Source: Squalus acanthias (lineage: Eukaryota). From it: a stretch of 64,000 nt of DNA. Within the stretch, counting starts at the first letter, position 1, and each line of letters begins with the position of its first letter. The translations under genes and the position numbers were made by a program. Where the stretch lies: NCBI GenBank assembly GCA_030390025.1, contig CM059432.1:65846001-65910000 (forward strand), in the 5' to 3' direction. A model generated the notes under the pieces. That model made no database searches. It saw only the letters and a program-made list of their open reading frames with translations, and was not told where the DNA came from. Positions 635 through 51,724 of this stretch are shown one piece after another.

Positions 635-1384
635 GGGCTGGATTTTGTCTTGGGGTCGTGTAATCCGCATTTCGTGTTTTCCCCCCGACTCCAGATTAAT
701 GTGGATGCCTGATGCAATTTTCACTTAATTGGGCAATTGCGTTGGAGCATGTGGGAACCCATGAACTAATTAGTGTTTTCAGTCTGAAAGTCGCCTCTGA
801 TGATGTCATCATTGCTGACTGCCTAGTCTCAGAGACTGTTGGTGAGAGAGGACCTGTCTGGCTTACTTTTGTGGACCTGGTTGGGGGGGGAAAGGAGAGA
901 GAGAGAGAGAGAGAGAGAATGTTTTTTGCATCCAGGTCCTCTCACAGCAAAGGCCAGGCAGTCTCTGAAGACATTCAATGCAGCAGCATCAGAGGCGACA
1001 TTCACACCTAATACTACTACTAACTAACTTCATCACATCTCCGTTGTAATAGTGGACCTGCAGCCGATAGTCTGCTATCCACTTGTGCTCCCGCCAGGTT
1101 TCACTGGACTGTTTCACACCAGGCGTGCTTCACGTCAGAAGAGGGTTAAACTAGCTACAGCGTTTCAAAATGGCATTACAGAGCCAATTTAGAGCTTGTT
1201 AAGGGCTTTAATGGCCTTTCCCGCCTCTTGAAGGTGGGATGGAGTTGGGAACCCCGCGACTGATTATGTCAAAATTGCGTGGAGGCGGGATCGAGTCGGG
1301 ATGGGGTCGGAAACCCCGACCCCGCAAATTTAACCCCCCGCACGCCTCCAAACCCGACTCCATGGGTCATTCAAAATCCAGCCC
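635..1384. mobile_element. Harbinger/PIF MITE nested in LTR A
   Basis: 13-bp perfect TIR GGGCTGGATTTTG/CAAAATCCAGCCC. 3-bp TSD AAA (632-634, 1385-1387). Confidence 0.9.
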
Positions 1385-8865: not shown

Positions 8866-9271
8866 CTGTGCCAGTATGCTGAACTGTTCCATGCAACAAC
8901 TACTAATATGTAGAACAATAATAATTCAAAGATTAATTTTGCATACACAATACAAAATAGTACACATGCCACAGCAATAATTGTCAAGAATCTCAGCAGT
9001 TAGAAAGATAGGGGGGTATATTGGTGCTTACTTTCACTATGTATTCACAATAGATGCAATAATAATATAACCCAGGAATAGCATTCTTTTTTTCAAGGAA
9101 ACATTCTCTTCACATTATATCAGAACACATGTTTTATTTTTTGATTCAAAACCCAGGGCTAGAAATTCTGTTGTGTACTTTATTTAAATTGGTTAATGCA
9201 TTCAGGTGAAATTCCTCATTAACCCATTTTTAAAATAAATGGATTAGTGACTTTGTTAAAATAGAGAATAA

Positions 9272-11970
9272 GGGCTCGATTTTGCCAGGCCCGAGGAGGC
9301 GGGATTGGAGGCGTGTGAGGTGGTAAAATCGCAAAAAATGGCGGGTGGGCCCGATCCCGTCTCCAGCCCGTCTCCGAGCAATTTTCCTAAATGCGAGTTT
9401 TCTGACCCCATTTCTATCCCGCCTCCAAGAGGCGGGATAGGCCCTTAAGGCCCTTAACAACCAGTTAAGTGCCTCTATAACCCCATTTTGAGAGGCCTTT
9501 CTGATTTTACCACTTTTCCCCCATCCTGCATGCCTCCTCTGGAACATGCCAGTGAATCCTGGCGGCCTCACAAGTGGATTGCTTACTAACAGCTGCAGCT
9601 CGACCATTAAAAAGGAGTTTTCAGCAATCATCATTTGCAGGTGGCAGAACTTTGTTGTCTCAGATCTGGGGGAACGTTTAGCAGGCATACCCATTGTTGT
9701 GGAAGTTTGGAGCCTGACACCCATCTCCAGTGTGACTTCCTGGGAAACCCCTCTCGCCACCTTGACTGAGCGCTTCCTCAACTGAGGCATATACCAGAAG
9801 CATGGGAACCATTTATTTCCTTTCCTCCTGGACATCAGATTCGGACGAAGACCAGCCGTGGCAGCAGCAGAACCATGAACAACAGCACCACCAACAGCAG
9901 CAGCAACAACAGGAGCTCCAAGCTGCTGCTTACCCACCTGAAGCTGCACAGGCCAGAACGCACCAGCGCGCGACCACATTGCTGCCCGGGATGCAAGGGA
10001 CACACTCATCTTGGCCAGATTTGCTTAGCCTGCACAATCAAACAATTTTGCCTCACACCTTCTTATCAGACCATTGACAATGGCCAAGAACCTGCGGATT
10101 CCTATCACTCTGACCACCATACTGACAATTGCAAGTCACCCTAAGCCCTCAATGTGGAAGTCCCATTAGAGAAATGACACATGCCACAACTGCAACAGTT
10201 TGCCATCAGAATTTTTTATGACAATAAGCAACTGATGGCTTTTCAAAGTTAAACACAACATTACACCCAAGTGACTACGGTAGCCAGCCTTACCATGGAG
10301 GTAGCCAGCCTTACCATGGAGGTAGCCATCCTTTCCAAGGAGGTTGCCATCCTTTCCGTGGTGATGCGTTCATGCGCCAACGCCTCCACAAAGGCTCTGC
10401 ACATGCTAACGATGGACTCCTCCATTCGCTCCACACTTGCAGCGACCCTGGAGACAAAACCTGCCAGAGACTCCTGCACCTGTTCCTGGAGTTCCAGCAC
10501 CGCTCTCCTTCTGGATGGACCCGGAGGCACAGGGTCGACATGCAGCGGAGCCGAGCTGGGAGAGTCCTGTGCCCTCCGATGAGGACTCTCCACTGCTGTC
10601 CCTGTCTCCACCATCTGCTGATGCTCACTTGTGAGCTGTGATACACCAGGTGACAACTCTACTCTATGTCCCAAAGGTCCCACCGAGGTGTGAGTGTCTG
10701 CACTGGTGCAAGGTGCACTTAATTCTGCTGACGGAGCGCCCTCAGAGGTTGCAGCTTCCTCTGAGGAGTCTGGAAGCTCAGGCTCTTCCTCCTGGACAGT
10801 GGGGACGGGAGCTCTCGATGGTCCTGTGGGGGAGTAAAGGAAAGAGTTAGAGATGTGAGGTAAAGGTTGCATGCACATTGAATTGTGCAGATGATCATAA
10901 GCCAATCTGTTAGAGCATCAGAATCATTATCAGTCACTCATGCAATGTCAATGAGAGAGATGCCAAACTATTCTGTCACCAGCTTGCTGTGATGCGCCCA
11001 CGTGTCCGTCCCCCACTTGGGAATCCTCCTCGATCCCGTCAATTTCCAGGGCCGCCTCCTCCGAGGTGGTGAGCTGGGCTACTGAGGGTGGCCCTCCTCC
11101 TGTCCTCGCTCTTTCCCTCTTATTGTGGGCTCTCTTTTCCTGCAATGAGGGACACAAGTGGAGTTTGAGTGAGAATGAAGGAGTGAGTGTAGAGAATCCA
11201 TAGCATAGATGCTTAGAAGGAGACAAAGAGCTCTGCCTGTGTGTTGTAAGTTGTTGTCATTGCGTCACAGTGATAGGGAGTGTGAGGGCTGCATGGTCGA
11301 ATAGTTAAGTGAATGTGACCATAGAGAGAGAGGGAATGGGTAAGGGTGCAGGGATGTCAGTGTCAAGTGGGATGTGGAGGAAGAGGTTGGCAAAGCAGAG
11401 TGCTGGTGAGGAGAGGCGATGGGGATGAGATTGAGGGTGATGAGAAAGTCATGCTCACTTTTCCTGTGCAGAGAAGGTCTCTTTCTGCACTGCAGCCAGG
11501 TTCTGCGGCACATAGAGATGGCATTGACCTCCTGGGCCACTTGCAGCCACACAGCTTTAGTCTGTTGTGGTGGTTTTTTTCTCCCTGAGGAAGGGAAGAG
11601 CACCTCCTTATTAAATCTTGCTCCCTGCATCAGAGCTTGGAGGGAGGGCTCATCAAAGCAAGGTGCACACTTTTGCTTGCTGGTGGACATGGTCGGTAAA
11701 TGAAGTCCTTCATACAATGTACAAAGCGTTTCCAGTCTCCAGAAGAAGCAAGGCTGCTTGCAGGCCTTAAATCCAGCAGCACTGATGACGTCATCGGAGG
11801 TGACTTTCAGGATGGAAAGACTAATTGGGCCAGGGGTTCCCACACACTGGAAATCAAGTGCCCAATTAGGGGAAAATCGCACTTTTTTCCCACTTCACAT
11901 CGGAGTCGGGGTCCTGACACGAAAACCACCTGACACACCCCAGCCCGACCCCAATGGCAAACTCGAGACC
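9272..11970. mobile_element. Non-autonomous Myb-retaining Harbinger
   Basis: TIR GGGCTCGATTTTGCCA / TGGCAAACTCGAGACC. TSD TAA. Three-exon Myb gene on minus strand. Transposase reduced to a remnant at 9802-10028. Confidence 0.9.
10261..11690 (-). pseudogene. Harbinger Myb/SANT-like DNA-binding protein gene, 3 exons (11690-11459, 11139-10980, 10823-10261), frameshift at end of exon 1
   Basis: Motif APCFDEPSLQAL...W..VAQEVN...RTWLQCRK. Exon 2 EKRAHNKRERARTGGG. GT-AG sites. Exon 1 is 232 nt (not 3n). C-terminal 21-bp heptad repeats (ERMATSL/VRLATSM). Confidence 0.8.
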
Positions 11971-12089
11971 TAAGAATTTAATCGAAGCACATTAACCAAT
12001 TTCTTAAAAATGGTGCACCAAGGAATTTCTACCCTAAGTCTATTATCATAATTTTTTTTAAAGAAAATCTTTTGTCACAATTGGGTCAC

Positions 12090-17252: not shown

Positions 17253-18095
17253 GGGCTGGATTTTCATTGACCCGTGGAGTCGGGTTTGGAGGCGTGTGGG
17301 GGGTTAAAGTTGCAGATTCGGGGGTCCCGACCCCATCCCACCCCCAACCCGCCTCCATGCCAGTTTCGCTGGCGGCGGGTACCCGACCTGTGCTGGGACC
17401 CGCCTCACCGAGGCGGGAAGGGATTAGTGACAATTAACTGCCTGTTAACAGGTAGTTAACAGGCAGTTTTTTGCCTAATCCCTATTTTAATGGCTGAAAT
17501 GTGGGCTTCCCGACAGGTGCCAACCATGTCAAGTTATCGGGGCGGACCGTGGGTCTGCAGGGGTTGGAGGGGTCGATATGTCCGGTGGGCAGGTGAGTGA
17601 TGGGTGCATGTGTGCAGAGGTAAGTGTGTAAGGTAAGTGCAAAGTGTGGGAAAAAGTTTTACTTACCTTAACTTCCTCCTGCAGGTGTCAGCCCTTCAGT
17701 TCTCGGGAGTCAGAAATCTCACCGGCACAGAAAGCAGAAAGGCCGTGGTGTTGTCAAAAGTTTCAGCCTCTGTTTTCTGTGCTGGAATTATTTCTAACTC
17801 AGCCTGAGAGGAAGGACTCAAGTTAGAAGACAAATTGTCAGTGTTTGACAGCTTCACAGAGCTGTCAAACGCTGATATTTCATCTGTCAAAAGCTCTTGA
17901 CAGATGAAATGTCAATCTGTGACGTCACCTGTTGCCGGGTGGCCCTTAATTGTCCTGCTGAGCTCACTGGGCGGGCTCAACAAGGTCAATCAAGGGAAAA
18001 TACAGTGGGTTGGCCACATCTCGATGGAGAGGGGTCTACAACCTAAAAATTGGGATTCCCGACTCCATCACGTCCCCAGTATCAAAATCCAGCCC
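17253..18095. mobile_element. Harbinger MITE with splice-site cluster and hairpins
   Basis: TIR GGGCTGGATTTT/AAAATCCAGCCC. TSD ATT. End homologous to 635-1384, interior homologous to 43335-45775. Confidence 0.9.
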
Positions 18096-20096: not shown

Positions 20097-21076
20097 GGGC
20101 TAGAAATTCGCCTCCTTTGCGCCTCCCGTTAGCGCCTCTGGGGGGTGATAACGGGGCGCTACCGGCTTTGCGACCAGGTGCGACGATAGTACCAACGCCC
20201 ACAAAATTGACATGGAGGTTTGCGGCGGGGGTAACCACTAGCACCAGGATCTCCTGCGCCTGGAGAACGTGACATCATCGGGCTGCGCAGCGCCCCGGTA
20301 GCGCCCAGGATCCGAACTTCGGTTCCGCCACCTGCAGCATCGCCGGGCGAAAACACCGACAGCTGCAGGAGGCGTTGTTAGGGAGGCCGGCCGCTTGAGG
20401 AGCGGTATTTAAACGTAAGGCCGCTTGTGTCAATGAAAAATTTGTTTTCACCCCTTAGGTTGTTTTTTCAATTTTTTCCGTGCCGCGATTGATACTTGGA
20501 TATGGCATTGGAAGATGAATTCACTGACCTTGACCACTCGTGTGAGGTCATTAAAATTCCTCTGGCACTGGATCCATGTCCTGGGGGAAAGACTGATGGT
20601 ACTGACGGCTTCAGCTATCTCCTCCCACTGCCTTCGAACAGTGTGCCTGGAATGCCTCCTGGCCCCATGTGGGTGAAGGACCTGTCTCCTCCTATAAACT
20701 CCCTGCACCAAGGCCTCGAGTGCTGCATCAGAGAACCGAGGTGCCCTTTCTCTGCCATGTTGAGACATTGCTAAGTTCCAGCTCCAGTCAGAATGAGGCA
20801 CTTCTCTCACAAAGCACCTCCCCTTTAAAAAGTGCAGACTACCTTTCACTCTGTAGGCAACCTTTAAATACAGAGCAGACTTCCCACGATATTGGGCTCC
20901 CTATTGATCGTTGAGCCAACCAGCCACGCATTTAGAGCTGTGCTCAGCGCTGCATTCATGTTAATGAGCAGGCAGCACGAATTTTGCATTCTGCCTGCAC
21001 TACTTTCAACAGGCGTGGGCAGAATGCGCATCGCGATCCCTGTGCCCGTTTTCGGGCCTTATCCAATTTAAATCCC
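20097..21076. mobile_element. Non-autonomous Harbinger retaining only Myb exon 1 (20768-20529, minus)
   Basis: GGGCTAGAAATT ... AATTTAAATCCC. Encodes MSQHGRERAPRFSDAALEAL...QCQRNFNDLTRVVK then a GT donor. TSD not preserved. Confidence 0.8.
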
Positions 21077-22988: not shown

Positions 22989-25900
22989 GGCCTAGAAATT
23001 CTGCTCATAGTGCCCGGTTTTTCGGTGCCATGGGTGCCGTTTTGGGTCAAAAATGGCATCCGCGCCGCAGGTGCACACTTCTGGTGTGGACCACGGTGAA
23101 CGCCATTTTGGTGAGGTCATTTGTGTCGGCGCAGGTAGTGTGCGCCAATAGTATGCAGTGCACGCAGATCATAACGTTAATCAGCGTGCAATGCTGATTT
23201 GACGTCAGCGCTGCTATTTTCGACCTCAGTGCTGGAGCTCACACCCTCTCTTAACCTCCCACAGCTGAACATTCGTTCAGCAGCAGGAAGGACCTCCCAC
23301 CAGCCTTATTTAAAGGGACCAGCACGTGCTTTCAGGTTAGTTGCTGGTTGATTTCTACTGGCATTTGGTGAGTTTGTCGAAGCGTTTGTTGGTTTTGGTG
23401 TCTTATTTGAAGTTGCTGAAGTGTCCAGGGAGTGATGTGGCAAGTTATTTCAAGGCTTCTTCTCAGACCAGTTGCTCCCAGACATGGGTGCAGCAGTTTG
23501 TATCCCCCTTGGTCTGCAGAATGATAGGGAGAATGAGCAGAGGTGGCACAGAGGAGGACAAGCTCCTTAAAGAGGGCGGAGGAAGCCGGAGAGACGGGCT
23601 CTCAGCTGGAGACCATATCCACCCAGGGTCTTCAGGGAGCAATTCACCTACCTCAGTCTCAGTGAGGAACAGTGTATGCGACGTGCCCGCTTCACGAAGG
23701 AGATGCTCACTGAAATCTGCCACCTGTTACAGGCAGATCCGCAGCCTGAGAGCAGGGCGAGGACGACATTGTCAGTGGTTCTGAAGGTGAGCGTTGCCAT
23801 GAATTTTTATGCATTGGGCTCCTTCCAGGCAGAGTTCACCATTAACCGTTGCATAAGGGAGGTCATTGAGGCTCTGTATGCAAGGAGGGCTGAATACATT
23901 TCATTCTCTCTTGCCAAAGAGAAGCAGGCGGAGCGAGCATGCGGCTTCGCCAGGATAGCAGGCTTCCCCTTGGTGCAGGGTGCCATTGACTGCACACACG
24001 TCACTTTGCGAACGCTGCATGTGAGCTCGGAAACGCACCGCAACTCGAAGGGATTCCAGTCCCTCAGTGTCCAGCTGGTGTGCGACCACACTCAGCGCAT
24101 CATGCAGCTCAACGCTCAGTATCCTGGCAGCAGCCACGATGCCTTCATTCTGCAGCAGTCCGCTTGTACCATCCACATTTGATGCGCCACGACAAACCAG
24201 AAGGTGGCTACTAGGCAACAAGGGGTATCCGCTGGGCAACCGGCTCATGACTCCAGTGCGCAACTCAAACACGTGTGGCCAGCATGCATATAACAAAAGC
24301 CATGCTGTCACACGGAATGTGTTCGAGCAGACCATTGGGGCCCTTAAACAATGCTTCTGCTGCCTGGACCACTCTGGAGGAGCCCTGCAGTACTCACCCG
24401 CGTGCGTCTCAAGATTTGTTGTGGTCTGCTAAATGCTGCACAACCTCACCATCATGAGGGCACAGCCCTTGGCCACCAGGCATACGGCGACCAGCTGAGG
24501 AGGAGGAGGAGGAGGAGGAGGAAGGGAGGAGGCAACCGAGACAGCCCCTTTCTGGCCGGGTTGCCCGTTATCAACTGATCTGACTGTGGTATCAGTGAAC
24601 ACAAGCTCAAGTCCCCATTCACCCACAGTCCCACTCCCTACCATCCCTCTGTTACTGACCATCACAGCATCCTCTTGGCCACAATGCTACAATAAAAGCC
24701 ACCACAAAACAAATATTCCAAACCAACTTTATACATCAATCCATCCAATATTACATAACAAAGTCAACTAATCGCCCTTGTGCATTCCCTTAATGCCTGT
24801 CTTCAGTGTGTCTTTGCCTGTCCTAGTGTTACCCCAGTGGCTGCAGCATGGCTGATAGAAGGCTGCTGGCTTTCAGTGGGGGAGACTGCAGATGGCCTTG
24901 CAGGATGACCTCGAGCAGCTCTGGGCCTAGAAGGCCCGGCTTTAGACTACACCACCTCTGCATGGGTGGCGGCAGTCTGGGCTGGCTGGCCGACAGGCAA
25001 CACAAGGGCACTGGTGGAGTGGCAGTGGTGGAAGGACGAATGCTGTCATCCTGAGAGAGGACAGCAGATTCATGCTCCACGGTGCCACTGCCACTCCCCC
25101 AGGGCGGCACCTCAGCGATCCTAGTAATCTGTTGGAGGACAGATTGCTGGACCGCTGTGACACCCTGCAAGCCCCTTTCAACACTGGTAACAACAGTCAT
25201 GATGGCAGCAGTCTGAGCTTACATGGCAACAAGCTGAGCTTGCATGAGTTAAGTCTGAGCTTCCACTGTAGCACTCAGATATTGTGTGGCTTCTGCTTGT
25301 GCTGCAATGGAAGCTGAGACATCGGCCATCAGACGCTGCATGATGGTTGCGTCCACAAGTACACTAATGGATCTGTCCATCACCTCCACGCTGGAAAGGA
25401 TGGGCTCCAAGCTCTGCCCAAAACCCAGTGCAAGGTTGGTGCTGGACTCCTCCATGCTCCTTGACATTGCATTCAGGCAATCTGGCAGGCCTGCCAATGC
25501 ACCAAACATTTTGTTGTGCCTACCCATCAGCTTTGTTCAGTAAACCGCCCTATCGAGGTCCTCAAATGAGTCCTGTGCAGCAGAACTTGAGTGCGCACTC
25601 ACCCTCTGGGGAGCTGACACATGTGCTATCCTTTCCCCCTGCCCTGGCTGTAGCCCAGTTGTGCCCGGTGACTCACCACATGCAGATCCCGCCTCTATGC
25701 TACCCTCTAAAGTACGCGTATTGCCAGTATCTGAGCTGGTGGCTGCGAGTGTGAGATCGAGTGACGGTGCTTCTTCTTCATTAGTGTTTTCTTCCTCTTC
25801 TACCACTGCCTGCCCAGGTTGGAGTTCTTGGGTGTCTGAAGGCAAAAGGCCCAAGGGTAGGGTTGTGGTGAGGGGAGGGGCAGGGTTAAGCAAGAGGTGC

Positions 25901-26310
25901 ACGCTTACACCACGTGCAGCTTGTAAGTCAGAAGAGATTGTGGGATGAGGGGGAAGTGGGATGTGAGAAGGAGGATTAGGTATGATCATACCGTCATCTT
26001 CAATGGTTTCAACCCCACTGCTGGCCACAGGCTCAGTCACAGCCATTCCAATAATGCCAAGCACCGTCTCCTCCATTGGGGTTAGGATGTACAGGCACGC
26101 CTGCCCCTCTCCAGTTAGCTGCTGCTGCCTTCGGTTCTGTGCCTCCTTCTCCTGCAAGAGAGAGGGAAGTGGGCCATTGAGTGTGGTGCAATGTGTTTGG
26201 TTGATGTGGCTGTCATGGATGAATTGCTGGCAGTCTGTGCAAGCTGTGAGATGTGGGTGTGAGACTTGCAGCAGTGGTAAATGTGTGAGATTGAGATGGA
26301 CTAGATAGAG
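22989..26310 (+). mobile_element. Degenerate Harbinger: transposase pseudogene (~23484-24590, +) and Myb exons 2-3 (minus); right end missing
   Basis: GAIDCTH, YPGSSHDAFIL, WLLGNKGY and NVFEQTIG motifs across frameshifts. Myb exon 2 EKEAQNRRQQQLTGEG. Left end GGCCTAGAAATT. Confidence 0.88.
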
Positions 26311-27149
26311 GAGAAGCCAGCATAAATAAAGGCATGTCCCAAGGAAACAGCACCTGACATTTCCATGCATCTCATGCAAGGCCTAAAGATTGCTTTCCAC
26401 AATGTGTTGTCTGTTCCAAAAATACTCCTCAGCCAGGACAAGCCTTCTCTCAACCTTACAGCTCATTCTTTGCAGGTCATGTATACCCATACCACAAGAA
26501 GGCACACCTTCAAAATACAATGTAGAATTGGAACTTTGCCACACTCAAATCTTTCAACACCCTATCACCTCAAGTCATTTTAAAACAAACTAGCTGCATG
26601 ATGCACAAGCAGTTACTTACACCTAGTTTGGCTGCAATGTGTGTCATTGTGCCTCTCAAGCTCCTAAGCTCACAAGACCACTTTTCTACTGGTACAACTA
26701 GATGTTAGCTTGAGGGCTCAATCCCAATTCGAAGAATGGGCTCCCTCGTTAAGCCTCCTTGTGATATGCTCAAGCAGCTCCGGTGGGATCTATGGATCAA
26801 CCTACGTGGGTAATGTAAATAATTCTAACACTAAAAGGCAGCCATTTTAATAAATTCTGTAACTGCAATTTTCTCATGGTAACAATCTGTTATTGTAAAT
26901 CTCTCATTCGAACAAAGTATGTTTATTCAAAATTCACAAACATCAGTTGTTACAAACCACTTATAACACATACTGACAATACAAGTCTCTCATTGCACTC
27001 AGATTATTAGCTTCTCATTAAAAAAAAGGTTACAAACCACTCATTTAATGTTTTATTCAGTGTGCTTACAACTACTTCATTATGAAACCTCTTAAAACAA
27101 ATCTCCCATTATAGCATTATCTTGTTACAGATCTTTTTGTTATCACAAT

Positions 27150-29009: not shown

Positions 29010-29134
29010 TTGCATTGATTGCAGTAATTATTGCGGGTGTATACACTTTTTTCCCACTTCACATCGGAGTCGGGGTCCTGACATGAAAACCACCTGACAC
29101 GCCCCAGCCCGCCCCCAATGGCAAAATCGAGCCC
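29010..29134. mobile_element. Isolated right end of the 9272-11970 Harbinger family
   Basis: 29043-29134 is nearly identical to 11880-11970. Confidence 0.8.
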
Positions 29135-33070: not shown

Positions 33071-33419
33071 CTCTGACTTCCATCAACAGTCTAGAGTGCG
33101 TGCTATCAGGGCTCAGTGACTTATCCATTTTGAATGCTGCCCTGCCCTGCTTGCATCAACTGTAAGACTTCCATGTGCAATTGCTGGCCAGTCGGTGGGC
33201 AAATGGCCCAACTCTGCACCAGCGGTTGCTTTTTTGTGGCCCCCGCAGATGGCCTGTTAACGCGTACGTTGACAAGCCACAAGTTCTGGATTTTGCGCAT
33301 GAGAGTATGCTGTCATACACACTGCAATTTCAGGGCCATTATGTCTGTAACAAAAATGTAATCTTCTATCTGTGCTGAATATTTTTAACTTACATTTTCT
33401 AGTGCTAGAATTAGCATGT

Positions 33420-36400
33420 AAGGGGTTGAAGGAGAATCACACAGGGCATTTCTCAAAGGAGAACACACCAATATAGGAGAGAGCAGGCTCCAAGGTTTTC
33501 GGATACTGCTCTGGAGGTCTTGGTGGAGGAAGTCAAAGGGAGGAGAGATGTCCTGTATCCGCAGGGGTTAGGAGGACCTCCAGACACATGCTCAGAAGGC
33601 AGTGGGAGCAGATAGCTGTGGAGATCAATGCGAGGAGTCAAGATCCGAGGACCTGGATGCAGTGCCACAAGAAGTTCAATAACCTCACACGAGTGGTCAA
33701 GGTAAGTGAATGCATCTTCAAATACCAGATCCTACCAACTGCACCAGTAGACTCAGCCACCGCTCAAATCACCACACCCCATCACTCACCCACCAACAAT
33801 CTCTATCAATCAGGCCTCATACCTAACATTCATATGCTTCACCTCACCCTCACACACTTAGCATTGCTACAAGCCTCACACCCACATCTCACAGCTTGCA
33901 CACACTGCCAGCTATTCAACCATGACAGTCACATCAGCCAAACAGATTGTACCACACTCACTGACACACTTCCCTCTCACTTGCAGGACAAGGTGGTGCA
34001 CAACCATAGGCAGCAAGAGCTAACCGGAGGAGGACAAGCACGCCTGCATGTCCTAACCCACATGGAGGAGATGATGCTGGCCATTATTGGAATGGCCATT
34101 GCTGAGGCTGTGGCCAGCGGCAGGGCTGTAACCTTTGAAGATGATGGTGTCCTCATACCTAATTCTCCTTCTCACATCCCACTTCTCCCTCATCCCACAC
34201 TCTCTTCTGATTTACAAGCTGCAGATAGTACTGCACCTCTTACTTTCCCCCACTCCCCGCACCACAACCTTACCCTTGTGCCTTTTTCCTTTCAGATACC
34301 CAAGAGGTGCAACCTGGCCAGGCAGTGGAGGAAAACCAAGAAGAGAGTGATGATGAAGGCGCAGTACCGTCACTTGATTTCACACTTGCTGCCATCAGCT
34401 CAGTTACTAATACTGCGCATATCTTAGAGAATAGGTTACAGGCGGGATCTGAACATGGTGAGACACTGGGCATGAGTGGTCAGGAAGCAAGGATAGTGCA
34501 GGTGCCAGCTCGCTGGAGGGCGAGGTCGCAGACGGTTTTGGCTGCAGAGGACGCAGATGAGGACTTCAATGGGGTAGCCTACAGAAGTACGCTAATGGGT
34601 ATGCACAGAAAAATGCTTGGTGCATTGGCAGGCCTGCCAGAAAGCCTGCATTCAATGACAAGGAGCATGGAGGAGTCCAGCACCAACTTGGCACAGGGCT
34701 TTGCGCAGATCTTGGAGCCCATCCTTTGAAGTATGGAAGTGGTGGCCAACTCTGTTCATGCACTTGTGGACCCAACCATGATGCAGTGTCTGATGGACGA
34801 TGTCACAGCTTCCATTGCAGCACAAGCAGCAACCATCCAACATCTGAGTGCTACAGTGGAAGCTTAGACTTCTGTCATGCAAGGTCAGCTTGCTGCCATG
34901 CAAGCTCAGACTCCTGCGATCATAGCTGCAGTTACCAGTGTTGAAAGGAGCTTGCAGGGTGTCACAGCAGTCCAGCAATCTGTCCTCCAACAGTTTACTA
35001 GTATTATTGAGGTGCCACTGGGGGAGTGGCAGTGGCTCCACAGAGCACGAACCTGCTGTCCTCTCTCAGGAAGATAGCATTCGTCCTCCCACCCCTGCCA
35101 CTCCGCCAGTGCCTGTGCTGTTGCTAGTCAGCTGGCCAGCCCACACTGTTGCCGCCCATGCCGAGATGGTGCAGCCTGCAGCTGGGCCATCTAGGCCCAG
35201 AGCTGCTTGAGGTCGCCTTCCAAGGCCATCTGCAGTCTCCTCCATTGAAAGTCAGCAGCCTTCCACCAGCCTTGCTGCAGCAACTGGGGTAGCACTGCAT
35301 AGGAGCACTAGGACAGGCAAAGGCACCTAGAAGACAGCCACTAAGGGAATGCACAAGGGTGATTGGTTTAAGTTTACATGCAATATGGCATGATTTCATT
35401 TATAAATTTGGTTTGGAATGTTTATTTTGTGGTGGCTTTTATTTTTGCATTGTGGCCAAGCGAACCCTGTGATGCTCAATGACAGAGGAAAGTAAGGTGT
35501 GGGACTGTTAGTGAATGGGGAATTGGGGTTGCAGTTACTGGTATCATACTCGGATGAGTTCTTCATGGACATCCCGGCTGAAAGGGGCTGTCTAGGTTGC
35601 CTCCTCTCTTCCTCTTCCTCCTCCTCCTCCTCATGCTCCTGCTCCTCAGCTGCTTACCGTATAGCTGGTGGCAAGGGCTGCTGCATAACCTCATGATGGC
35701 GAGGTTGTGTAGCATGCAACAGGTCACCACGAATCTTGACACCCGCTCTGCTGAGTACAGTAGGGCTCCTCTAGAGCAGTCCATGGCTTTCATTGTATGC
35801 ATGCTGCGCCATGTGCATGGGTTGCACACCGGAGTCATGAGCCATGTTGTCAGCAGAAAGCCCTTGTCGCCCAGTAGCCATCCTTTGGATTGCCATGGTG
35901 GCTGAAATGCAGCTGGCACAGCAGACTGCCACAGAATGAAGGCATCATGCCTCCTGTCAGGCATTGACCTGCATGATGTGCTGTCTATGTTCACACACCA
36001 GCTGGATGTTGAAGGAGTGGCATAGGGCAGAGTTGACATGCGGCTCCCGCAAAGCAATGTGCGTGCAGTCAATGGCACCCTGCACCATGGGGAAGCCTGC
36101 AATCCTTGTGAAGCCACATGCTCGCTCCGCCTGCTGCTCTCTGGCATGAGAGACTGAAATGTAGTCAACTTTCTTTGAATAGAGAGCCTCAGTGACCTCC
36201 CTTACGCAACAGTAGATGGCAAACTGCGAGATGTTGCAAATATCTCCAGCTCAAGCCTGGAAGGAGCCAGATGCATAAATGTTTGTAGCCACGGTCACCT
36301 TCACAGCCACTGGCAATGCGGTCCTTGCCCTGCTCTGAGCTTGCAGTTGTGGCAGCAGTAGTTGGCAGATTTCAGTGAGGACATCCTTACTGAAGTGGAG

Positions 36401-37057
36401 ACATCTCACACATTGTTCCTCACTGAGGTTCAGGTAGGAACACCCTGGGCGGATATGGCCTCCTGCTTGAGACCTCTTCTCCCCCTCCTCCTCCTCCCTC
36501 TTCCAGCAGCTTGTCCTGCTCTGCATGGCCTCTGTTCATTCTCAAGAATGCCTACTTGTGCACCCATGTCCGGCGGCAAGTGATTTGTACAGAAGCCTTG
36601 AAATCAGCAAAAAGTCATGTGCTGTGGACTTTTGAAACTTGAAACAACTATAGAAAGCACCAAACACTTGCAGAATCGCATCAATAGCCAGAAAGATCAA
36701 CCAGCAACTAACCTGTAAGTAGTTGATGATCCCTTTAAATAGAGCTGGTTGGAGGGGGCGGGGGGGAGTTCTTCCTTTGGCTGAATGCGTGTTCAGCTGT
36801 AGGAGCTTAAGAGAGAGTGTTTGCTGGAGCGTTGAGCTCCAAAATAGCACCGCTGGTGTCAAATCAACGTTGCACACTGATTGACGTCATGATCTGCCTG
36901 CTCTGTAACCTTCCGGTGGACGTTAGCTGCACACGCGCTAATGCCCTTACCAATATAGCGTCCGGCGCGATTCACCCCACAAGTGTGCAAATGCCATTTT
37001 GGTATCCAAACGGCACCCGTAGTGTCCAAACAATGGGCGCTACCGATCCAATTTCGT
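33420..37057 (-). mobile_element. Degenerate Harbinger, inverted relative to 22989-26310: Myb pseudogene on + (exon 1 ends 33701; exons 2 and 3 start 33987 and 34296), transposase pseudogene on minus (~36567-35540)
   Basis: RTWMQCHKKFNNLTRVVK|GTAAGT. DKVVHNHRQQELTGGG. WLLGDKGF. Collinear with 22989-26310. Confidence 0.88.
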
Positions 37058-38368
37058 GCTGTATGACTCTTAACTCTTATCTGAAATGGCCTAACAAATC
37101 ATTCAGTTGTATCAAACCACTAAAAAGAATAACTGCAGCAGTCCAAGAAGAAGGCCCTCCACCTGAAGGGATAATTACTAGTCCTAGCCCTTTTCGGGCT
37201 ACCCCGGATCAGGCGTATTCCCCAGACATTCACCTTCAACTAAAGTTAGAGATAGCCGAATCCTATAAGACACTTAATTGGGTCTAAAGGTCCAGACTAT
37301 CTCTCCCTAAAGGAAAGGAATGACCTGAAGATGTTACCGTCCTCCAGATAGCACTTTTAATAAGTTTAACTAGACTGTAACCTTCCGGATATTATGAGGG
37401 TCCGGAAAACTCCCCCAGAATTCTGAAACTCCTCACCAAAGAGTGTACAGGGATTGAGTTCACGAGTTTGATACAGAAGTACTATGTGAGACAATTCTAA
37501 AAATATATAGATTTATTAAAGAACCGACATGTAGTTAACAGTTGGTGATTCAGTCGCAACATTAACAGTTCAAAATACAAATAGCTTACAATTCTTATTC
37601 TCAGAGATCCTTATTCTCAAATCTTAACTTCGTTACATTTTTACATTTCTACTTATTCTTAATCCAGGATATCCACCAAAATCAAATAACTTTGATTACC
37701 CGAGACTCAAAGAGTTGTAGGCTTTCAGAGCCTGTCTCTGAAGCTGAGAAACGCTTGCCCCTTCCAGCGAATTCTGTCTTCCTATTTGAAAGTTCTATAT
37801 TTTAACCCTTTTTGCAGTGGTATATCCTTTGAAGTTTTCTGCCGATGTAAGCTAATTATCTCCAGTTATATTTCTGTTGACTTCTTTCTATTCTTACTGT
37901 CAGTTCAGCTGTTAGCTTGCTGACTTGTGTCTCTACCTTTAGGTGTTCAGAACTTATCATAAAAAACGGTTATAACAGCTGTATCTATTTGATGCCATTC
38001 TTATGAAGGTCTTCTATTCAATTCTTAAATCACCTCAGCTGGTTGTAAGCAGACTTCATGGGGGAAAATTCAGTTGGTTGCGCCTCCCGTTAGCGCCTTA
38101 AGAGGGCGCTAATGGGGCGCAAAGCAGCTAGCGCCCGGGCGCAGCGATGTTTGCGCCGCTCGCGAACTTAACTAGACATTTTGCGGCGGCGCTAAACTTT
38201 ATCGCCGCGATCTCCTGCGCGCGCAGATTGTGACGTCATATGAGAGTGCAACGCCCTTGTGGCGCCCCGGAGCAGAATTTCAGTGGCGCCCCCATCCTTA
38301 CCGCCTGGCGCATCCAACGACCGGAAGAGTGGAACGCTAACAATCGCTGTGGGGCTGGGGGGGGGCGC

Positions 38369-38376
38369 TATTTAAA
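38369..38376 (+). promoter_or_regulatory. TATA-like box of the transposase promoter (TATTTAAA), with CRE TGACGTCA at 38231-38238
   Basis: TATTTAAAGGG lies upstream of the transposase position in several copies (~18981, ~23307, ~60126). Confidence 0.5.
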
Positions 38377-38584
38377 GGGGGCCTCTTCCTGTCTTTCTCT
38401 GTGGTTGACATTTTTGCACCACTCGTTCTGAGAGAGAGAGAGAGATTCGGAGAGAGAGAAAGAGAGACTTCTGCATTGAGTCAACGCTGTGTGAGGTAGT
38501 TTTGGCTACTCATCCTAACTTCGCTGGTACTTTGGTTTCTGGCCTTCATAACTTTGCTTGCTAAGAGATACGGGGGCTGCACTG

Positions 38585-39600
38585 ATGGGGGGCGTCGTCC
38601 TGCGCCAGCTGAATCGGAGGAGACAGAGATGCAGAGAGAGAGTGGCAATGATGGCCAGATGGAGGAGGGCCAACAGGCGTCTGTACAGGAGAGCTTACCC
38701 TACCAGGGTATATCGTGAACAGCTATCCTACATTCATATGTCTGATGAGCAGTGTCTGCGAAGGCTGCGCTTCAGCAAGGAGGTGGTCACTGAGCTCTGC
38801 CACCTGCTGCAGCCAGATCTGCAGCCTCAACTGAGGTCCAGGACATCTCTGTCGGTGGCAGTGAAGGTCACAGTGGCTCTGAACTTTTATGCTACTGGCT
38901 CATTTCAATCTGCTGTTGGGGACATCGCCAATATCTCCCAGTTTGCGGAGCATTGCTGCATCAGGAAGGTCACAAATGCCCTCTTTAAAAGGAGACGAGA
39001 GTTCATCTCTTTCCCCATGACCCCAGACAAGCAGCAAGAATGCGCTCTGGGCTTTGCGAGGATAGCGGGCTTCCCCATGGTGCAGGGCGCCATTGACTGC
39101 ACGCATGTGGCTTTGCGTGCTCCGCATGAGAATGCCGAGGATTTCCGGAACAGAAAGGGGTTCCATTCCTTGAATGTTCAGTTGGTCTGTGACCACAGAC
39201 AGCTGATACTCGCTGTCAATGCCCATTATCCTGGCAGCTGCCACGATGCTTTCATCCTGTGCCAGACTACTGTGGCAGAACTTTTCGAGGCACCGCATCA
39301 GCCAGTTGGTTGGCTTCTCGGGGACAAGGGGTATCCACTGAGCACCCGGCTGATGACACCGCTCCGTACGCCCAACACCCCTGCTGAGCTGCGGTACAAC
39401 GAGAGCCATCAAGCTACCAGGAACATCGTGGAGCACACAATCGGCGTGCTCAAGCAACGGTTCCGCTGTCTCGACCATTCTGGAAGAGCCCTGCAGTACT
39501 CGCCTGAGCGAGTTTCCAACATCGTAGTTGTGTGCTGCATGCTGCATAACATGGCAATCCTCAGGACCCAGCCAATGCCACCAGGCCTTGGAGCACCACC

Positions 39601-39631
<31 letters not shown>

Positions 39632-39730
39632 GAGGAGGATGATCAGCAGCAGCACCAAGGCGTGAGGGCGGCCCACAATGGTGAAACTGCAAGGGCTGTC
39701 CGTCAGCGGCTGATAGCAAGCCGCTTCTAG
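38585..39730 (+). CDS. Harbinger DDE transposase (HARBI1-like nuclease family), 381 aa
   Basis: Uninterrupted ORF from ATG 38585. Motifs GAIDCTH, NRKGFHSLNVQ, YPGSCHDAFIL, WLLGDKGY, RNIVEHTIGVLKQRF, CCMLHN. Acidic tail. Confidence 0.95.
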
Positions 39731-40041
39731 GCCCCTGCTGTGGAAATGGCTTCTGCCATTGAGAACAGCATGAATGAACCCAACATGCAACCCCTAAGCC
39801 GGCCAAGGCACCAATGATTCCAAACACCAAACATGTATATTTTGAGTACCAAAACTTATTTATTTTACAAACTCTGTGTGTGTCATTTCTTCATGACAAA
39901 CTCATACAAATAAACACAAAAAAACAGTCATTACCATAACTGGTTCTCACAACCTGGAGATCATGTGCAAAACACTCAACAAAAGTTTGACCACGAACCT
40001 CGGCCTTTAATAAAAAAATGACCAGCATTTTGTCACACCTC

Positions 40042-41939
40042 CTACATCGAGGGTGAACTCCTTCCCGTGCGCCCTTCCCCCCTTCTTACCCTACTGCTCC
40101 TCCGCAATGGGACCTCAGTGGCTGCAGCAAGGCTGGTGGAAGGCTGCTGACTGTCAGGCCCTGACAATGCAGATGCCCTTGAGGGACGGCCTCGACCAGT
40201 TCTGGGCCTGGAGGGCCCGGCTGCAGACTGCACCAACTCTGCATGGGCGGCAGCAGTCTGTCCTACAGGCAGTGGCAACTGCAGTGGAGAAGTGACAGTG
40301 GTGGCAGCAGGAATGCTGTCATCTTGAGCGAGGACAGCAACTCCCTGCTCGACCAGCACACTGGCACTCCCACGGGGCAGCACCTCAGCATCCGGAGCAA
40401 TCTGCTGGAGCACAGATTGCTGGCCTGCTGCGGCGCGGTGAGAGCCCCGGGGAAATGTGAACGAACCAGCGAGGATGGCAGCAGACAGTGCTCGCGTGAC
40501 CTCAATCTGAGTCTGCATGAGAGCAGTCTGAGATTGAATTGCAGCACTGAGCTTCAGTGTCGCATCCGCCTGCGCTGCAGCGAAGTGCTCCACACTCCTT
40601 GCCAGTGCTTCAATGCATTCGGGCACCCTACCCACTGCAGCCATGAGCTCAGTGTGCATGCCCACCGCCTGGGTGTTCATTTCCGCGATCAGCCGCTCCT
40701 CCTCTGCGTCCAGTGCAGCAGGACTCGCTGGCATACTCTCCCTCCGGGGAGAAGGCCCCCGAGCTTCCCTACCCCCATCGCGTTGCTGCAGCCCGCTGGG
40801 TCCTGGAGCTTCACCCTCATCAGACCCTTCCCCCCTGCTCCCCTCCAGGGAAGGCATGTTCCCAGTGTCGGCATGGGCTTCCTCGGGAGAGGGTGGCACT
40901 GATGCTCCGGCTTCCTCTTCCTCCTCGGCTGCAGCTTCACTCCCACTGGCAGCTTCAGGGCCCGTCTCCTCAGCTGGTGAATCACCATCTGAAAGCAGGG
41001 AGGTACAAGAGTGGCTTTAGCGTGAGGACAGGGTGGCAGTAAGGGAGGAATAAGTGCAGCGAGTTAGTAAGTTGGATTGAAAGTGTCAAAGGCTGGTGTT
41101 GTGAGGGACAAGTGGAAGGACAGAGGACAAAAAGGTGATGACCTTACCATTGCTGTCCAGAACGGGGTCGGCGTCTCCAGTGGCGACGGGACCGATCACC
41201 CGGCTTGCCACGATCCTGTGGACGCGCTCCTCAAGATCACTGAGGGGTTGCAGCTGAGGCCGCCCTCCACCCGTCCGTTGCTGCTGTCTCCTATTATGCG
41301 CCAGCTTGGCCTGCAAGAAAAAGGACGGCGTCTGAGTAAATATACAGCCATGGTCTTGCCTGATGTGCCTCCCATAGGTGAATAGCCCTTACTGTATACA
41401 GCCATGGTCTTGCCTGATGTGCCTCCCATAGGTGAATAGCCCTTACTGTATACAGCCATGGTCTTGCCTGATGTGCCTCCCATAGGTGAATAGCCCTTAC
41501 TGTATACAGCCATGGTCTTGCCTGATGTGCCTCCCATAGGTGAATAGCCCTTACTGTATGCAAAGTATGGAATGTGTGTGTGTGCTTCATGAAAGGGCCA
41601 TAGGTGTTGGATGAGTGTTGTTAATTGTGGTTTTAAGACCCTCTGGCCATAGAGTGAGGTTGAGATGGAGGGATGGAGAGGTATTGCAAAAAAGCCACTC
41701 ACCCTGACGACCCGAGTGAGGTCGTTGAACTTTTTCCGGCATTGGACATGGGTCCTGGGCACCATGCTCCTGGAGGAGACGCGCTGAGCCACCTCCCTCC
41801 ACACTCTTCTGTAGTCGCGCGGCAAAGGCCTCCTGCCACTCTCTGGGTACAGTATTGGTCTTCGGCGCTCCACCGCGCCAACCAGAGCATCCAAGGCCCG
41901 CTCGGTGAAGTGCTCAGCTCGTTCTCTCACCCTCTCCAT
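40042..41939 (-). CDS. Harbinger Myb/SANT-like DNA-binding protein, 448 aa, 3 exons (41939-41703, 41310-41148, 40988-40042)
   Basis: Canonical GT-AG introns (phase 0, phase 1). 237+163+947=1347 nt joins in frame. MERVRERAEHFTERALDAL...WREVAQRVS...QCRKKFNDL; NRRQQQRTGGG. Confidence 0.88.
41341..41559. repeat. Perfect 54-bp x4 tandem repeat in Myb intron 1
   Basis: TATACAGCCATGGTCTTGCCTGATGTGCCTCCCATAGGTGAATAGCCCTTACTG four times with no spacer. Confidence 0.97.
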
Positions 41940-43334
41940 CCTTGGCTGGAAAATGGATTCACAGGTCTCTCCAGGCCGAGATTCAAGGCTGCAATGAGCA
42001 GGGTGTGGCTGGGGAGCAAGATCGCCCCCCCCTTTAAGAACTGGCCGGCGCCAGTGTGTCTGTGTTCCCTCGCTAACTGGCAGCACCTGTGCTGCGCTCG
42101 CGCTCTGAGTTCGCGCCTCACTCCTCAGCCTTTGCGCCTTAAGACAGGTGTGCAGCGCCTGATTTAGCGCTCCAATCACCTCCCGGTGCGTTAAAAGTGA
42201 AGTTTCCAGTCAGTGGCGATAATTAGCGCCAGGCGCTAATTATTGCGCCCGGACGATATTTGCGCCCCAAACGGGGCGCGACTGAATTTTTCCCCCCATG
42301 TCTCCTAACTGTTCCAAGTTCAACACAAACACACTGTGATTGCTTGGTGCATCTATTGATGTCATATTTACAAAAGTCTTCTGTTTGTATCTTTTTACAA
42401 CATGTAAATTATAAACACTTCAACCGAGTACATGATTGTCTTCCTAGCTACTTCAATTGGTTGTACCAAGAATTATGTCTCCTGTCTCATTTGATGTCAT
42501 ATTTATGAAGGCATATGTTTCTTTAATGTTCTGTGTTTCTGTTTGAAGTGTTAGTTTATAACACTTTAAACTGGGTATAGCTATTGTGTTCTTTCCAAAC
42601 TGCAGACTTCTTGGAAGCACCAACCCTTTGCTTCAATAGGGCCATTGTCTCAGTGTCAACAACCAATTCCCATTTCAAAAGCTTGTCTGGTGTTTACAGC
42701 TTTGTGTTAACAACTCATCTTATTTCAGAAGCCTATATTTACAGCTTTGTGTCGTTGAGGCTTTTAGATTTTTAAACCCAGTTTGTCATGTTTAATAAGG
42801 CTAGAATTCTGTTCATAGGATGGTGTATTTTTCTGAATATGGCTATTCCTTCACACACCACCTTCTTAAGAATGATGAATAAATGCCGGCCTTGCCAGCA
42901 ATGCCCAATTGCCCATATCCTGAGACTGAATAAAGAAAACCACAATGATAAGGATGTCACTGAGCCCACCAGTAATGCTATGTTGCTACAAACCTCAGAG
43001 GTGTGTTACAGCCCCCACTCCAGGTGAAGGCCAGAGATCTCGCAAAAATTATGTAAATGACCGTGAGACTGAAAATCAGCTGGAGTCACTCCTGTCATGC
43101 CAAAGTTCACCCCAATTGCACAAAATTAGAATATCTCGGCTATTACTTTGAACCCAAACTAACTTGGGATAATTAAAATTAACCAATATTATTGCCCTGA
43201 TGTTCTTGCATATCTCACTGAACTGTCTGCAGATCTCCCCTCTATTTCATCTTCACTATTATTTTCTCCTTCCCCCTTCAATATTAGTTTAAACTCTCCT
43301 GCACAGCATTAGTTAGTTGCCCAGCAAGGACATT

Positions 43335-47585: not shown

Positions 47586-49737
47586 TACCGTCTCCTTTTG
47601 GTTTGTCGTGGTGGCTCAATTGCTGATGGTACAGCGGACTGCCGCAGAATGAAGGCATCATGACTGCTGCCAAGATACCGAGCATTGACTTGCATGATGT
47701 GCTGAGTATGGTCGCACACCAGCTGGACATTGAGGGAGTGGAATCCCTTCCGGTTGCGGTATATCTCCAAATTGAGATGTGGCGCCACAAAGCGACCTGT
47801 GTGCAGTCAATGGCAGCATCGGGAAGTCTGCTATCCTGCTGAAGCCGCGTGCTCTGGCAAGAGAGAAGGAAATGTATTCGGCTCTCTTTGCCGACAGAGC
47901 TTCATTCACCTCCCTTATACATGAGTGGACAACAACCTGGGAGATGTTATAGATGTCGCCTATTCCAGCCTGAAAGGAGCCCGACGCAAAGAAGTTCAAG
48001 GCCACGGTCACCTTTACAGCTACTGACAATGCTGTCCTCGCCCTCAGTGAGCACCTCCTTAGTAAAATGGAGATGTCGCATGCACCGTTCTTCACTGAGG
48101 TTGAGGTAGAAGAATTGCTCCCTGAGGTCCCTGGGTGGATATGGCCTCCTGCTGAGAGCCCCTCTCCCCCTCCTCCTGCCTTTTCTAGCAGCTTGTCCTG
48201 CTCTGTGTCGCCTCTGCTCATTCTCCCTGTCTTGCTGCAAGCCAAGGGGGATACAAACTACTGCACCAATGTCTGGGAGCAACTGGTCTGAGCAGACCCC
48301 TTGCAAGTCAGTACCAAGTCCTTGAGCACGTGCCACGCCACGCCACGCCACGCCTTGTAGACTTTCGGCAACTTTAAAGAAGTCTAGAAAGCACCAAACA
48401 ATTGTTCAAACTCAGCAACAGTTGGTAGAAATCAATCAGCTTTAGCTGCTTCATCAATGACCTTCCCTCCAACATAAGGTCAGAATAGGGATGTTCGCTG
48501 ATGACTGCACAGTGTTCAGTGCCATTCACAACTCCTCAGATAATGAAGCAGTCCATGCCCGCATGCAACAAGACCTGGACGATGTTCAGGGTTGGGTTGA
48601 TAAGTGGCAGGTAACATTCGAGCCACAGAAGTGCCAGGCAATGACTATCTCCAACAAGCGAGAGTCTAACTACCACCCCTTGACATTCAATGGCATTACC
48701 ATCACCAAATCCCCCACCATCAACATCCTGGGGGTCACCATTGACCAGAAACTTAACTGGACCAACCACATAAATACTGTGGCAACAAGAGCAGGTCAGA
48801 GGCTAGGTATTCTGCAGCGAGTGTCTCACCTCCTGACTCCCCAAAGCCTTTCTACCATCTACAAGGCACAAGTAAAGAGTGTGATGGAATACTCTTCACT
48901 TGCCTGGATGAGTGCAGCTCCAACAACACTCAAGAAGCTCGACACCATCCAGGACAAAGCAGCCCATTTGATTGGCACCCCCTCTACCACCTTAAACATC
49001 CACTACCTCCACCACCGGCGTACTGTGGCTGCAGTGTGTAACATCTACAAGATGCACTGCAGCAACTTGCCAAGGCTTCTTCGGCAGCACCTCCCAAACC
49101 CACGACCTCTTCCATCTAGAAGGACAAAGGCAGCAGACGCATGGGAACACCACCACCTCCAAGTTCTCCTCCAAGTCACACATCATCCTGACTTAGAAAT
49201 ATATCGCCGATCCTTCATTGTCGCTGGGTCAAAATCCTGGAACTCCCTACCTAACAGCACTGTGGGGGTACCTTCACCACACGGACTGCAGCGGTTCAAG
49301 AAGGCGGCTCACCACCACCTTCTCAAGGGCAATTAGAGATGGGCAATATATGCTGGCTTTGCCAGCGACGCCCACATCCCATAAAAAAAACGAATTAAAA
49401 AAAATCAGCAACTAACCTATAAGTAGGTGATGATGTCTTTAAATATTGCTGGTGAGGGGTCCTTCCTGCTGCTGAACACATGCTCAGCTGTGTGAGATTA
49501 AGAGAGGGTATTAGCTCCAGCTTTGACGTCGAAAATGGCACGCTGATTGACTTCATGATCTGCGTACTTTGCATACGTCCAGTGCACGTTCCCAGCGCCG
49601 ACATTAATGCCCTCACCAAAATGGGATCCAGTGCTGCACGCGCCAGAAGTATGCGCACTGCTCGGTAGCCATTTTCAAGCCAAATCAGCACCCATAGCAC
49701 CCAAACTACGGGTGCTACGCAACTGAATTTTAAGCCC
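47586..49737 (-). mobile_element. Harbinger fragment (transposase pseudogene plus one end), split by LINE A
   Basis: YRNRKGFHSLNVQLVCDH...GSSHDAFIL. End CTGAATTTTAAGCCC. Confidence 0.82.
48441..49402 (+). mobile_element. CR1-group LINE family A, 5'-truncated, with an open 281-aa RT C-terminus
   Basis: FADD motif. ORF 48491-49336. TSD AATCAGC (48434-48440, 49403-49409). Confidence 0.9.
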
Positions 49738-49942: not shown

Positions 49943-51724
49943 GGGCTGGATTTTCCGGGGGGTGGGTGGGGGGGGGGGGGGCGGGCGGCAGCAGGTGCGA
50001 TTGGTGGCGGGCAGGGTGGGAAAGTGTTTTTTTTCCCACTTGATCGGGACCACGCTGTGAACCTGCCGCCACACGCCTTTACCAAATGTCGAGTCTGCCA
50101 TCGCTGAGCAGACCTGACAGGCAGTGGCGGGGGAGGCAATTAAAATCATTAGTGGCTTGTTTACAGCCACTTATCAATGGTTTATCCCCAGCTTTTTGGA
50201 TTTGACAGGTCACCCACCGGTTTCCCGCTATGCCGAGACCTCATCTGTGAAGCTGAGGCGGGAGGTCAGTGGCCATTGATTAGCTGATCAGTTGACAGCT
50301 TCAAATGTTAAGTCAAAGCTCCCAGCTGATTGAGATATGTTCTCTTAACCATTAGCTTCTCTAAACTGCATTTCCACTACAGATTCAGGATGCTGCAATT
50401 CTTTACATAAGTCTCCATCCAGTCTGATCTTATTACCTCTCCCACCATTGACAGATCTCTTCTGTCATCTCCACTTCACCTGCCGTCTATTCCATCAGCA
50501 TGGGTGCCCTTTATACTGTCTCACCTTCGTCCTCAGAATCCCACCATGATCAGCCCCAACACCAGCATCACCAGGCACACCAGCAGCACCAACAACAACA
50601 CCAACCTTCTCCGTAATCAACAGATGCTGCACAGGACGCAGGGCATCAGCACCCGACCACATTGCTGCCCGGGAGGCCATGGATGGCTTCACCATGGCTA
50701 GATTTACTTCACTTGATGCTGTACACCCTGGCTACCACATGATACGCCAGGTTGGCACCACCCCACACCAATACCATAAACATCCCTACAATGCCCAAGC
50801 CATTCCTTTCACACTCAGCACCACTGCGGGGGGGTACCGTTATGTCTCACCATTCACTGCAACTCATTAAGCCACTTCCAAAGGTGCACAAAATCTGTCC
50901 ATGAACGCAAAGTGTTGAAAATAAAGGTTTCAATGTTTGACACCACATTAACAGAAACTTTACATAAACATTGCATACAACACCCAAGTGCCTACCCTTG
51001 TGTGTTGTTAGTTGGTATGATTGGACTAGGATGAGGGTGAATGTGAAGGTTGGCTACAGAGATGGAGATGTGATAATGTAGATAGAGCGGGATGGGTGGA
51101 CGTGCAAGGTAAGTTGGTGTGAGTAAGGATGTGCAGGAGTAGGATAGGGAAGGCAGAGTGATGGGGATGTGATGAGAGGCACAGCAGGATGAGGCTGAGT
51201 GTGGCTTTGTACTAACGTTTCGTGATCTACTGAGATTATTGAAAATTTAGCGACACTGCACCCAGGTCCTCCTGACCACATCCCTGCTTGTGTCCTCCTC
51301 TGCAATGTGTAACCAGCCTGTGTTGATCTCCTGGGGAGGTCTCTTCCGCCCATTGGAAGGGAAGAGAACCTCCCTGCATGCTGTGACTCCCTCCATAAGC
51401 ATATGGAGGGAGTCATGGGAGAGCCTGGGTGCTGCCCTGCGACTCGGTGCAGTGATTGTCAGTGTTTGCAGCAGCTCAATGCTGTAGAACACTTGACAGC
51501 ACAAATGTCAAAATAAATTTGGTCATGGTCCCTTTAAGGAAACCGGCTGATGACATGCATCAAATGACGCTTCCTCTAATTGGCCAGCAAATGTGCTGGG
51601 CGGGCTTAACAAGCCCAATCTAGGGAAATTAATTTCAGAGGCCGGGATGGAGCCAGCAGTGGGGTCGGGACCCGCCACTGACATTGTCTGCCATGGACCC
51701 GCCGAGGTTAGTAAAATCACGTCC
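49943..51724. mobile_element. Non-autonomous Harbinger with transposase remnant (+, ~50500-50710) and Myb exon 1 (minus, ~51480-51215)
   Basis: GGGCTGGATTTT ... AAAATCACGTCC. APRLSHDSLHML...EVLFPSNGRKRPP...RRTWVQCR. Confidence 0.8.

Follow-up and report, generated by a model that had tools for sequence, protein, structure and literature searches.

In PIF/Harbinger elements, a Myb-like protein attaches to the ends of the element and also to the transposase, both proteins being required according to the accessible part of PMC9179366. Myb-only Harbingers are already known, and the idea is not new. Harbinger-Snek of Laticauda comprises multi-copy solo-ORF variants; the accessible part of PMC8437027 gives 452 intact DNA-binding-only copies for one sea krait, outnumbered by 2263 transposase-only variants. 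In Caenorhabditis inopinata, Harbinger-1M_cIno includes expanded MADF/Myb-only derivatives with terminal inverted repeats (TIRs) and TWA duplications, for which DDE transposase supplied in trans has been proposed. The accessible part of PMC13668399 describes a fresh insertion, intact MADF at 14 of 19 loci, expression and a single intact DDE gene, and terms the trans model hypothetical. Finally, the Ozma-derived Gnome, Elf and Goblin MITEs of Aedes aegypti, which are one-gene Tc1/mariner elements, arose by deletion between imperfect repeats of 6-8 bp, with right breakpoints 28-52 bp ahead of the transposase stop (PMC3814204, accessible part).

Here we describe E1, a PIF/Harbinger element at 9272-11970 of a 64,000-nucleotide stretch of Squalus acanthias DNA (the window). 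Compared with Harbinger-Snek, the shark family has mapped breakpoints that recur in two diverged subfamilies and in several shark species, while its copies in the window are broken. Unlike Harbinger-1M_cIno, it has core-bearing relatives, but it is known from sequence alone and its Myb copies in the window are damaged. The right breakpoint of E1 lies about 57 bp ahead of the transposase stop; whereas breakpoints differ among the Gnome, Elf and Goblin families, one breakpoint pair is present in two diverged shark subfamilies, which is the new detail. The first-pass annotation had referred to Myb-only Harbingers from the newt Pleurodeles, but this attribution could not be traced: the accessible text of PMC5741667 describes Harbingers with a Myb-like gene, and neither there nor in the accessible text of bioRxiv 10.1101/2022.10.19.512763 are Myb-only elements described. 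In the open literature on shark Harbingers (subscription papers and Repbase/Dfam lying outside this scope) we found no account of the E1 family.

Structure of E1 and related elements

The window is eukaryotic DNA crowded with LINEs and Harbinger elements, and its protein relatives come from sharks and rays. Twenty sequencing runs from 8 studies, none of them RNA runs, matched it, and pieces of four runs (X5, X6, X15 and X16, from 4 organisms) were aligned to it at 80% likeness. E1 is flanked by the target-site duplication TAA (9269-9271 and 11971-11973) and bounded by 16-bp TIRs at 9272-9287 (+), with imperfect subterminal symmetry for about 55 bp beyond, and at 11955-11970 (-), complementary at 14 of 16 bases. 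The hallmarks of PIF/Harbinger elements, short TIRs beginning with GG and a 3-bp TWA target duplication, are thus both present. The left TIR is exited into unlike flanks by 235 contigs of run X15. The transposase relics of E1 and of a second element, E2, are of HARBI1-type DDE ancestry, since their ends match proteins with PF13359 cores, and tblastn gave no match of any transposase core within either element. We conclude that E1 is a true PIF/Harbinger deletion derivative without a transposase core.

A solo right end of the E1 family lies at 29044-29134 (+; 94.6% identity over 92 nt), and a non-coding MITE at 635-1384 (-) is related to both E1 ends (69% identity across 354 nt and 79% across 105 nt). 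This MITE and another at 17253-18095 have like TIRs, with target-site duplications AAA and ATT. The left subterminal part of E1 holds a perfect hairpin at 9414-9440 (12-bp arms, 3-nt loop). The left flank (9080-9268) is matched at 96% by an 816-nt contig of run X16; the match ends just before the TAA, and the contig, 479 further letters of which did not align, possibly represents an empty or a different site in its organism.

Other Harbingers were also observed. A near-complete two-gene element of another clade occupies 38065-42267, with an open 381-aa transposase at 38585-39730 (+), Myb exons at 40042-41930 (-) and, within the first Myb intron, a tandem repeat of 54 bp (41341-41562). Two decayed two-gene elements in opposite orientation (22996-26382 and 33337-37018) share 70-79% identity, and a transposase fragment lies at 47594-48306.

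Transposase relic and parent clade

The transposase of E1 had been described as collapsed to about 225 bp, with its N-terminus joined to a C-terminal piece, and the relic indeed measures 227 bp, from the ATG at 9802 to the TAG at 10028. Both pieces are present on the forward strand. The N-terminus (9802-9969; 56 codons, MGTIYF...Q-rich...HQR) matches that of the sawshark HARBI1-like protein P0056 (E 4e-9), while the C-terminal relic (9970-10028), reading DHIAARDARDTLILARFA up to the stop, matches the C-termini of P0042, P0152 and P0175. However, the two lie in different frames (227 mod 3 = 2; the tail is 2 bases on), and the frame of the ATG continues for 91 codons, passing HIAAR in the wrong frame. 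An in-frame mini-transposase was therefore rejected, as the out-of-frame fusion encodes no two-ended product. The stretch at 10029-10278, between the convergent genes, is presumably 3' untranslated.

Contigs related to E1 document what is missing. Among the 24 loose ends listed of 5315, two, representing 18 contigs from run X16 and 15 from run X5, exit E1 exactly after 9969; they continue as ATGGAAGC, translated MEARRRRRYP, which is the basic motif upstream of Harbinger cores in related proteins. About 1 kb of transposase must have been lost, because this motif lies 330 and 339 residues from the tail motif in two sister-clade proteins. With the breakpoints and the parent protein both seen, the claim of an internal deletion in the E1 transposase is upheld: related contigs run past 9969 into the basic motif, and a contiguous junction in a full enzyme was not seen. 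Another propagated deletion in the same family, from 9794 to 10132, was found in three runs. Junction-bearing copies must borrow transposase, and the earlier statement to that effect stands.

The enzyme with which E1 had initially been compared, the intact one at 38.6-39.7 kb, belongs to a different clade in a quick tree and was rejected as the parent of E1 or E2. A protein search with this transposase, and then with an alignment of four of its matches, yielded 246 proteins, 49 of which were selected by us for the tree. The relic head is matched by P0056 and P0152 and the tail by P0042, P0152 and P0175, while P0060 has the tail motif as judged by eye. These five proteins, all from Pristiophorus japonicus, fall in one 14-row clade of the tree (SH-aLRT 100; 49 of 246 proteins). 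The sawshark models, named 'putative nuclease HARBI1', share the transposase head and tail of the relics and define the parent clade. They keep the DDE core that E1 and E2 lack, and in those matching both relic ends the matching parts flank a complete catalytic core. They are automatically predicted genes, for the most part in damaged copies, and do not represent curated families of transposons. The models P0042, P0003 and P0183, named in the same way, are chimeras that combine several transposon fragments (a relic in antisense, exon 3 of Myb, and Myb exon 1 fused to cores) and are therefore not to be taken for host genes. A protein search with the relic N-terminus gave no matches, a weak negative, and pattern scans with the C-terminal relic gave none in JGI metagenomes or in viral contigs.

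The deletion joint and the relation of E1 to E2

E2 is a 1782-bp element at 49943-51724 (+) with decayed TIRs and the flanking triplets ATC and ACT, hence no clean target-site duplication; it is inserted in what we take, from ORFs and sequence, to be a CR1-type LINE fragment. Its transposase relic (50500-50709, +) is likewise out of frame and carries the same joint (50643-50652), as the first-pass annotation had pointed out: at the joint E1 and E2 align ungapped and in register, agreeing at 44 of 55 bases, and the alignment of 152 nt has an E value of 4e-22. Of the Myb gene, E2 has exon 1 (51217-51450, -; stop TAA at 51249), while tblastn queries with exons 2 and 3 gave no match there. A perfect 14-bp hairpin was observed at 51384-51415.

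Outside the joint, the two elements appear not to be one subfamily. Their non-coding parts align globally near shuffle level, with 55% identity in the 5' subterminal part, 56% in the 3' untranslated part (shuffled control 52%, maximum 54%) and 54% in the 3' subterminal part; the values are 61% for Myb exon 1, 65% for the relic head and 77% for the relic tail. Behind the tail, E2 shares 15 of 28 residues with the read-through of the core-bearing P0042 and 4 of 26 with E1, and in the same frame its head scores 123 against the core-bearing P0152 and 57 against E1. Against such separateness, the coding-frame scores of E1 and E2 with P0056 and with each other are nearly equal (100, 85 and 92). Each deleted type thus has core-bearing kin of its own, those of E1 in the loose-end contigs and those of E2 in the sawshark models. 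The earlier view of an old, propagated subfamily uniting E1 and E2 can be kept in part: the joint is multi-copy and present in several sharks, but the near-shuffled non-coding identity and the closer match of the E2 3' end to a core-bearing element do not support a single subfamily.

The joint at 9969 is bridged with at least 31 letters on each side in 5 of the 32 pieces listed (X6 records 25-28 and X5 record 18), these 32 being picked from about 210,000 by length, with a bias to bridging, and the longest having about 400-450 aligned bases. The bridging pieces have 82-87% identity or better, and X6 records 25-28 contain 35-72 other letters and 1-12 gap letters apiece. A multi-copy deletion form with a common joint, as known from solo-ORF variants, is therefore found here too. 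No contig links the joint to the Myb exons, at the length of the pieces listed. Inside E1 the summed depth of the three large runs amounts to about 1e5 to 1e6, compared with 7-13 for the left flank, a ratio of about 1e4 or more; this indicates great abundance but does not equal a copy number, and the listings covered 15 of the 220 joints and 24 of the 5315 loose ends. The family is very abundant and spans several species. Residues 1-61 of P0042 read a relic of the E2 type in antisense, agreeing in 42 of 64 columns with no gap across the joint. The sawshark therefore also has a deleted copy of this type, unless the P0042 model has an intron exactly at the joint. The joint has been propagated and is old enough to be present in several sharks.

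The Myb gene and the origin of the family

The second gene typical of PIF/Harbinger elements, with a Myb/SANT trihelix domain, is present in E1 on the reverse strand but broken. Exon 1 (11459-11690, 232 nt) matches PF13873 (E 8e-6; best atlas matches 0.94-0.90, all PF13873) and carries a frameshift near 11480, which puts it out of phase with exon 2 by one base, in agreement with the frameshift noted before. Exon 2 (10980-11139, 160 nt) has AG/GT borders, and tblastn matches it to the second exon of three other elements in the window. Exon 3 (10261-10823) is open over 187 codons, contains a 21-bp repeat four times (10258-10361) and is 40% identical over 96 aa to the Heptranchias model P0003; its natural end is probably missing. 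Depth is at its minimum over 10180-10279, position 10278 is spanned by none of the 32 pieces listed, and X6 records 29 and 28 have 277 unaligned letters before 10302 and 143 after 10211, respectively. Exon 3 was thus probably truncated by a second break at 10278/10279, although the 21-bp repeat could also break contigs. A protein search with exon 3, covering longer proteins only, gave no matches (a weak negative), and an atlas search gave only leads under 0.9. One of 273 candidate loci in an exon 3 scan of metagenomes (L001) was dismissed as chance, with one shared 8-residue word and no DNA similarity; no relatives were found in JGI metagenomes.

The statement that a three-exon Myb gene remains thus applies to E1, its frameshift aside, and not to E2, which has exon 1 only, and the notion that the family supplies its own adaptor is not borne out in the window, where the gene is intact in neither of the two junction-bearing copies. 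Relative to the majority letters (16 of the 40 difference rows listed, out of 743), the E1 Myb gene differs in 15 codons, 11 non-synonymously and 4 synonymously; this ratio is as expected for drift after insertion and, coming from a small selected set, is silent on selection in the amplifying founder. Exon 1 lies close to an element end, which may explain its survival of internal deletions. Two further loci, at 20448-20900 and 60294-60788, seemingly have Myb exon 1 only, like E2. The palindrome TGACGTCA, presumably CRE-like, occurs seven times in the 64 kb (11786, 17920, 18841, 23200, 36882, 38231 and 59992), each time in or beside a Harbinger-type element and in E1 about 100 nt ahead of the Myb ATG.

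We consider it fairly probable, taking the account as a whole, that the family stems from a founder born by microhomology-mediated deletion, which borrowed transposase from intact relatives while its Myb gene was passively carried and decayed. An autonomous two-gene element would have lost about 1 kb of transposase between two short similar sequences, perhaps during repair after excision, and the shortened copy, with both ends kept, would have been mobilised by the transposase of intact relatives and then multiplied. Past mobilisation in trans is suggested by the TIRs and target-site duplication of E1 and by the many divergent joint copies. The Myb gene, untouched by the deletion, would have travelled along, later copies losing it piecewise. 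On this account, which we think the best explanation, E1 would be a dead representative of a non-autonomous Harbinger variant of the 'solo-Myb' kind. E2 would have arisen in like manner within a sister subfamily, most likely through a deletion of its own at that built-in repeat or through recombinational transfer of the joint.

The joint itself allows such a repeat to be proposed. In the ten bases ahead of it (9960-9969, +, in E1; 50643-50652 in E2), the head frame ends in HQR and HQH, respectively, and the tail frame starts with APA and ASAP, while full proteins read IPPAPKHIA, ASAAAHIAAR and TPAVLHIAAR at the same place. Because head and tail readings overlap there, both parental breakpoints probably had a similar word of 7-10 nt; the putative direct repeat is seen in DNA on the 5' side and deduced from proteins P0042, P0152 and P0175 on the 3' side, so that the microhomology is a probable one, derived by back-translation rather than from parent DNA. 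Independent deletion at a built-in repeat would explain the matching joints without shared descent, recombination transfer being the alternative, and we hold repeated microhomology deletion to be as likely as shared descent for the joint of E1 and E2. It speaks against separate deletions that E1-E2 identity is highest at the joint (74%), a pattern equally expected from one old deletion. That one ancient deletion predated the E1/E2 split, with later recombination adding the ends of different intact subfamilies, nevertheless seems quite improbable to us: the register is identical in E1, E2 and the sawshark copy, and some recombination is described for fish Harbingers in the accessible part of PMC9179366, but immediately on either side of the joint E2 resembles the core-bearing sequences of the sawshark more than it does E1, so that recombination could have swapped a very short tract only. 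The joint is precise and recurrent, which would suit a functional intron, a regulatory rearrangement or the retro-copying of a spliced transposase transcript, yet such an origin is extremely improbable; the skipped part in the loose ends starts with ATGG and not GT, which largely refutes a splice origin, the product is out of frame, and E1 retains its TIRs, target-site duplication and both Myb introns.

More serious, though still unlikely, is a selected split system, in which junction-bearing copies keep a working Myb protein that alone, or best, recognises their ends and recruits borrowed transposase. E1 does keep three exons with splice sites, exons 2 and 3 being open over 240 codons; together with the deep coverage of the Myb region, this agrees with a founder whose Myb gene was intact and speaks against passive decay. 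Family-specific adaptors are also suggested by congruent Myb and transposase trees in fish (PMC9179366, accessible part), and the MADF-only Harbinger of C. inopinata is active, with the 14 of 19 intact loci given above (PMC13668399, accessible part). Set against these points are the absence of an intact Myb gene from both window copies, the existence of core-bearing relatives at least 80% identical to E1, which should bring their own Myb, and a joint from 10607 to 11208 that removes exon 2 (3 contigs of X15, 2 of X6), a weak observation given a short side of just 22 letters. Moreover, a protein made in the cytoplasm would serve all like-ended copies, leaving weak selection on each non-autonomous lineage. 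We thus favour passive carriage of the Myb gene by a deletion founder living on its relatives' transposase.

A shared breakpoint of diverged transposons need not, therefore, imply descent in common. The abundance of the family, its span of species and a joint that tags deleted copies make it well suited to a dN/dS test of Myb retention. A bolder reading, which we regard as quite unlikely, is that a deletion hot spot in one shark transposase clade repeatedly spawned Myb-only lineages, with Myb under purifying selection to recruit the transposases of other subfamilies. If true, this would be a long-lived adaptor-carrying parasite in vertebrates.
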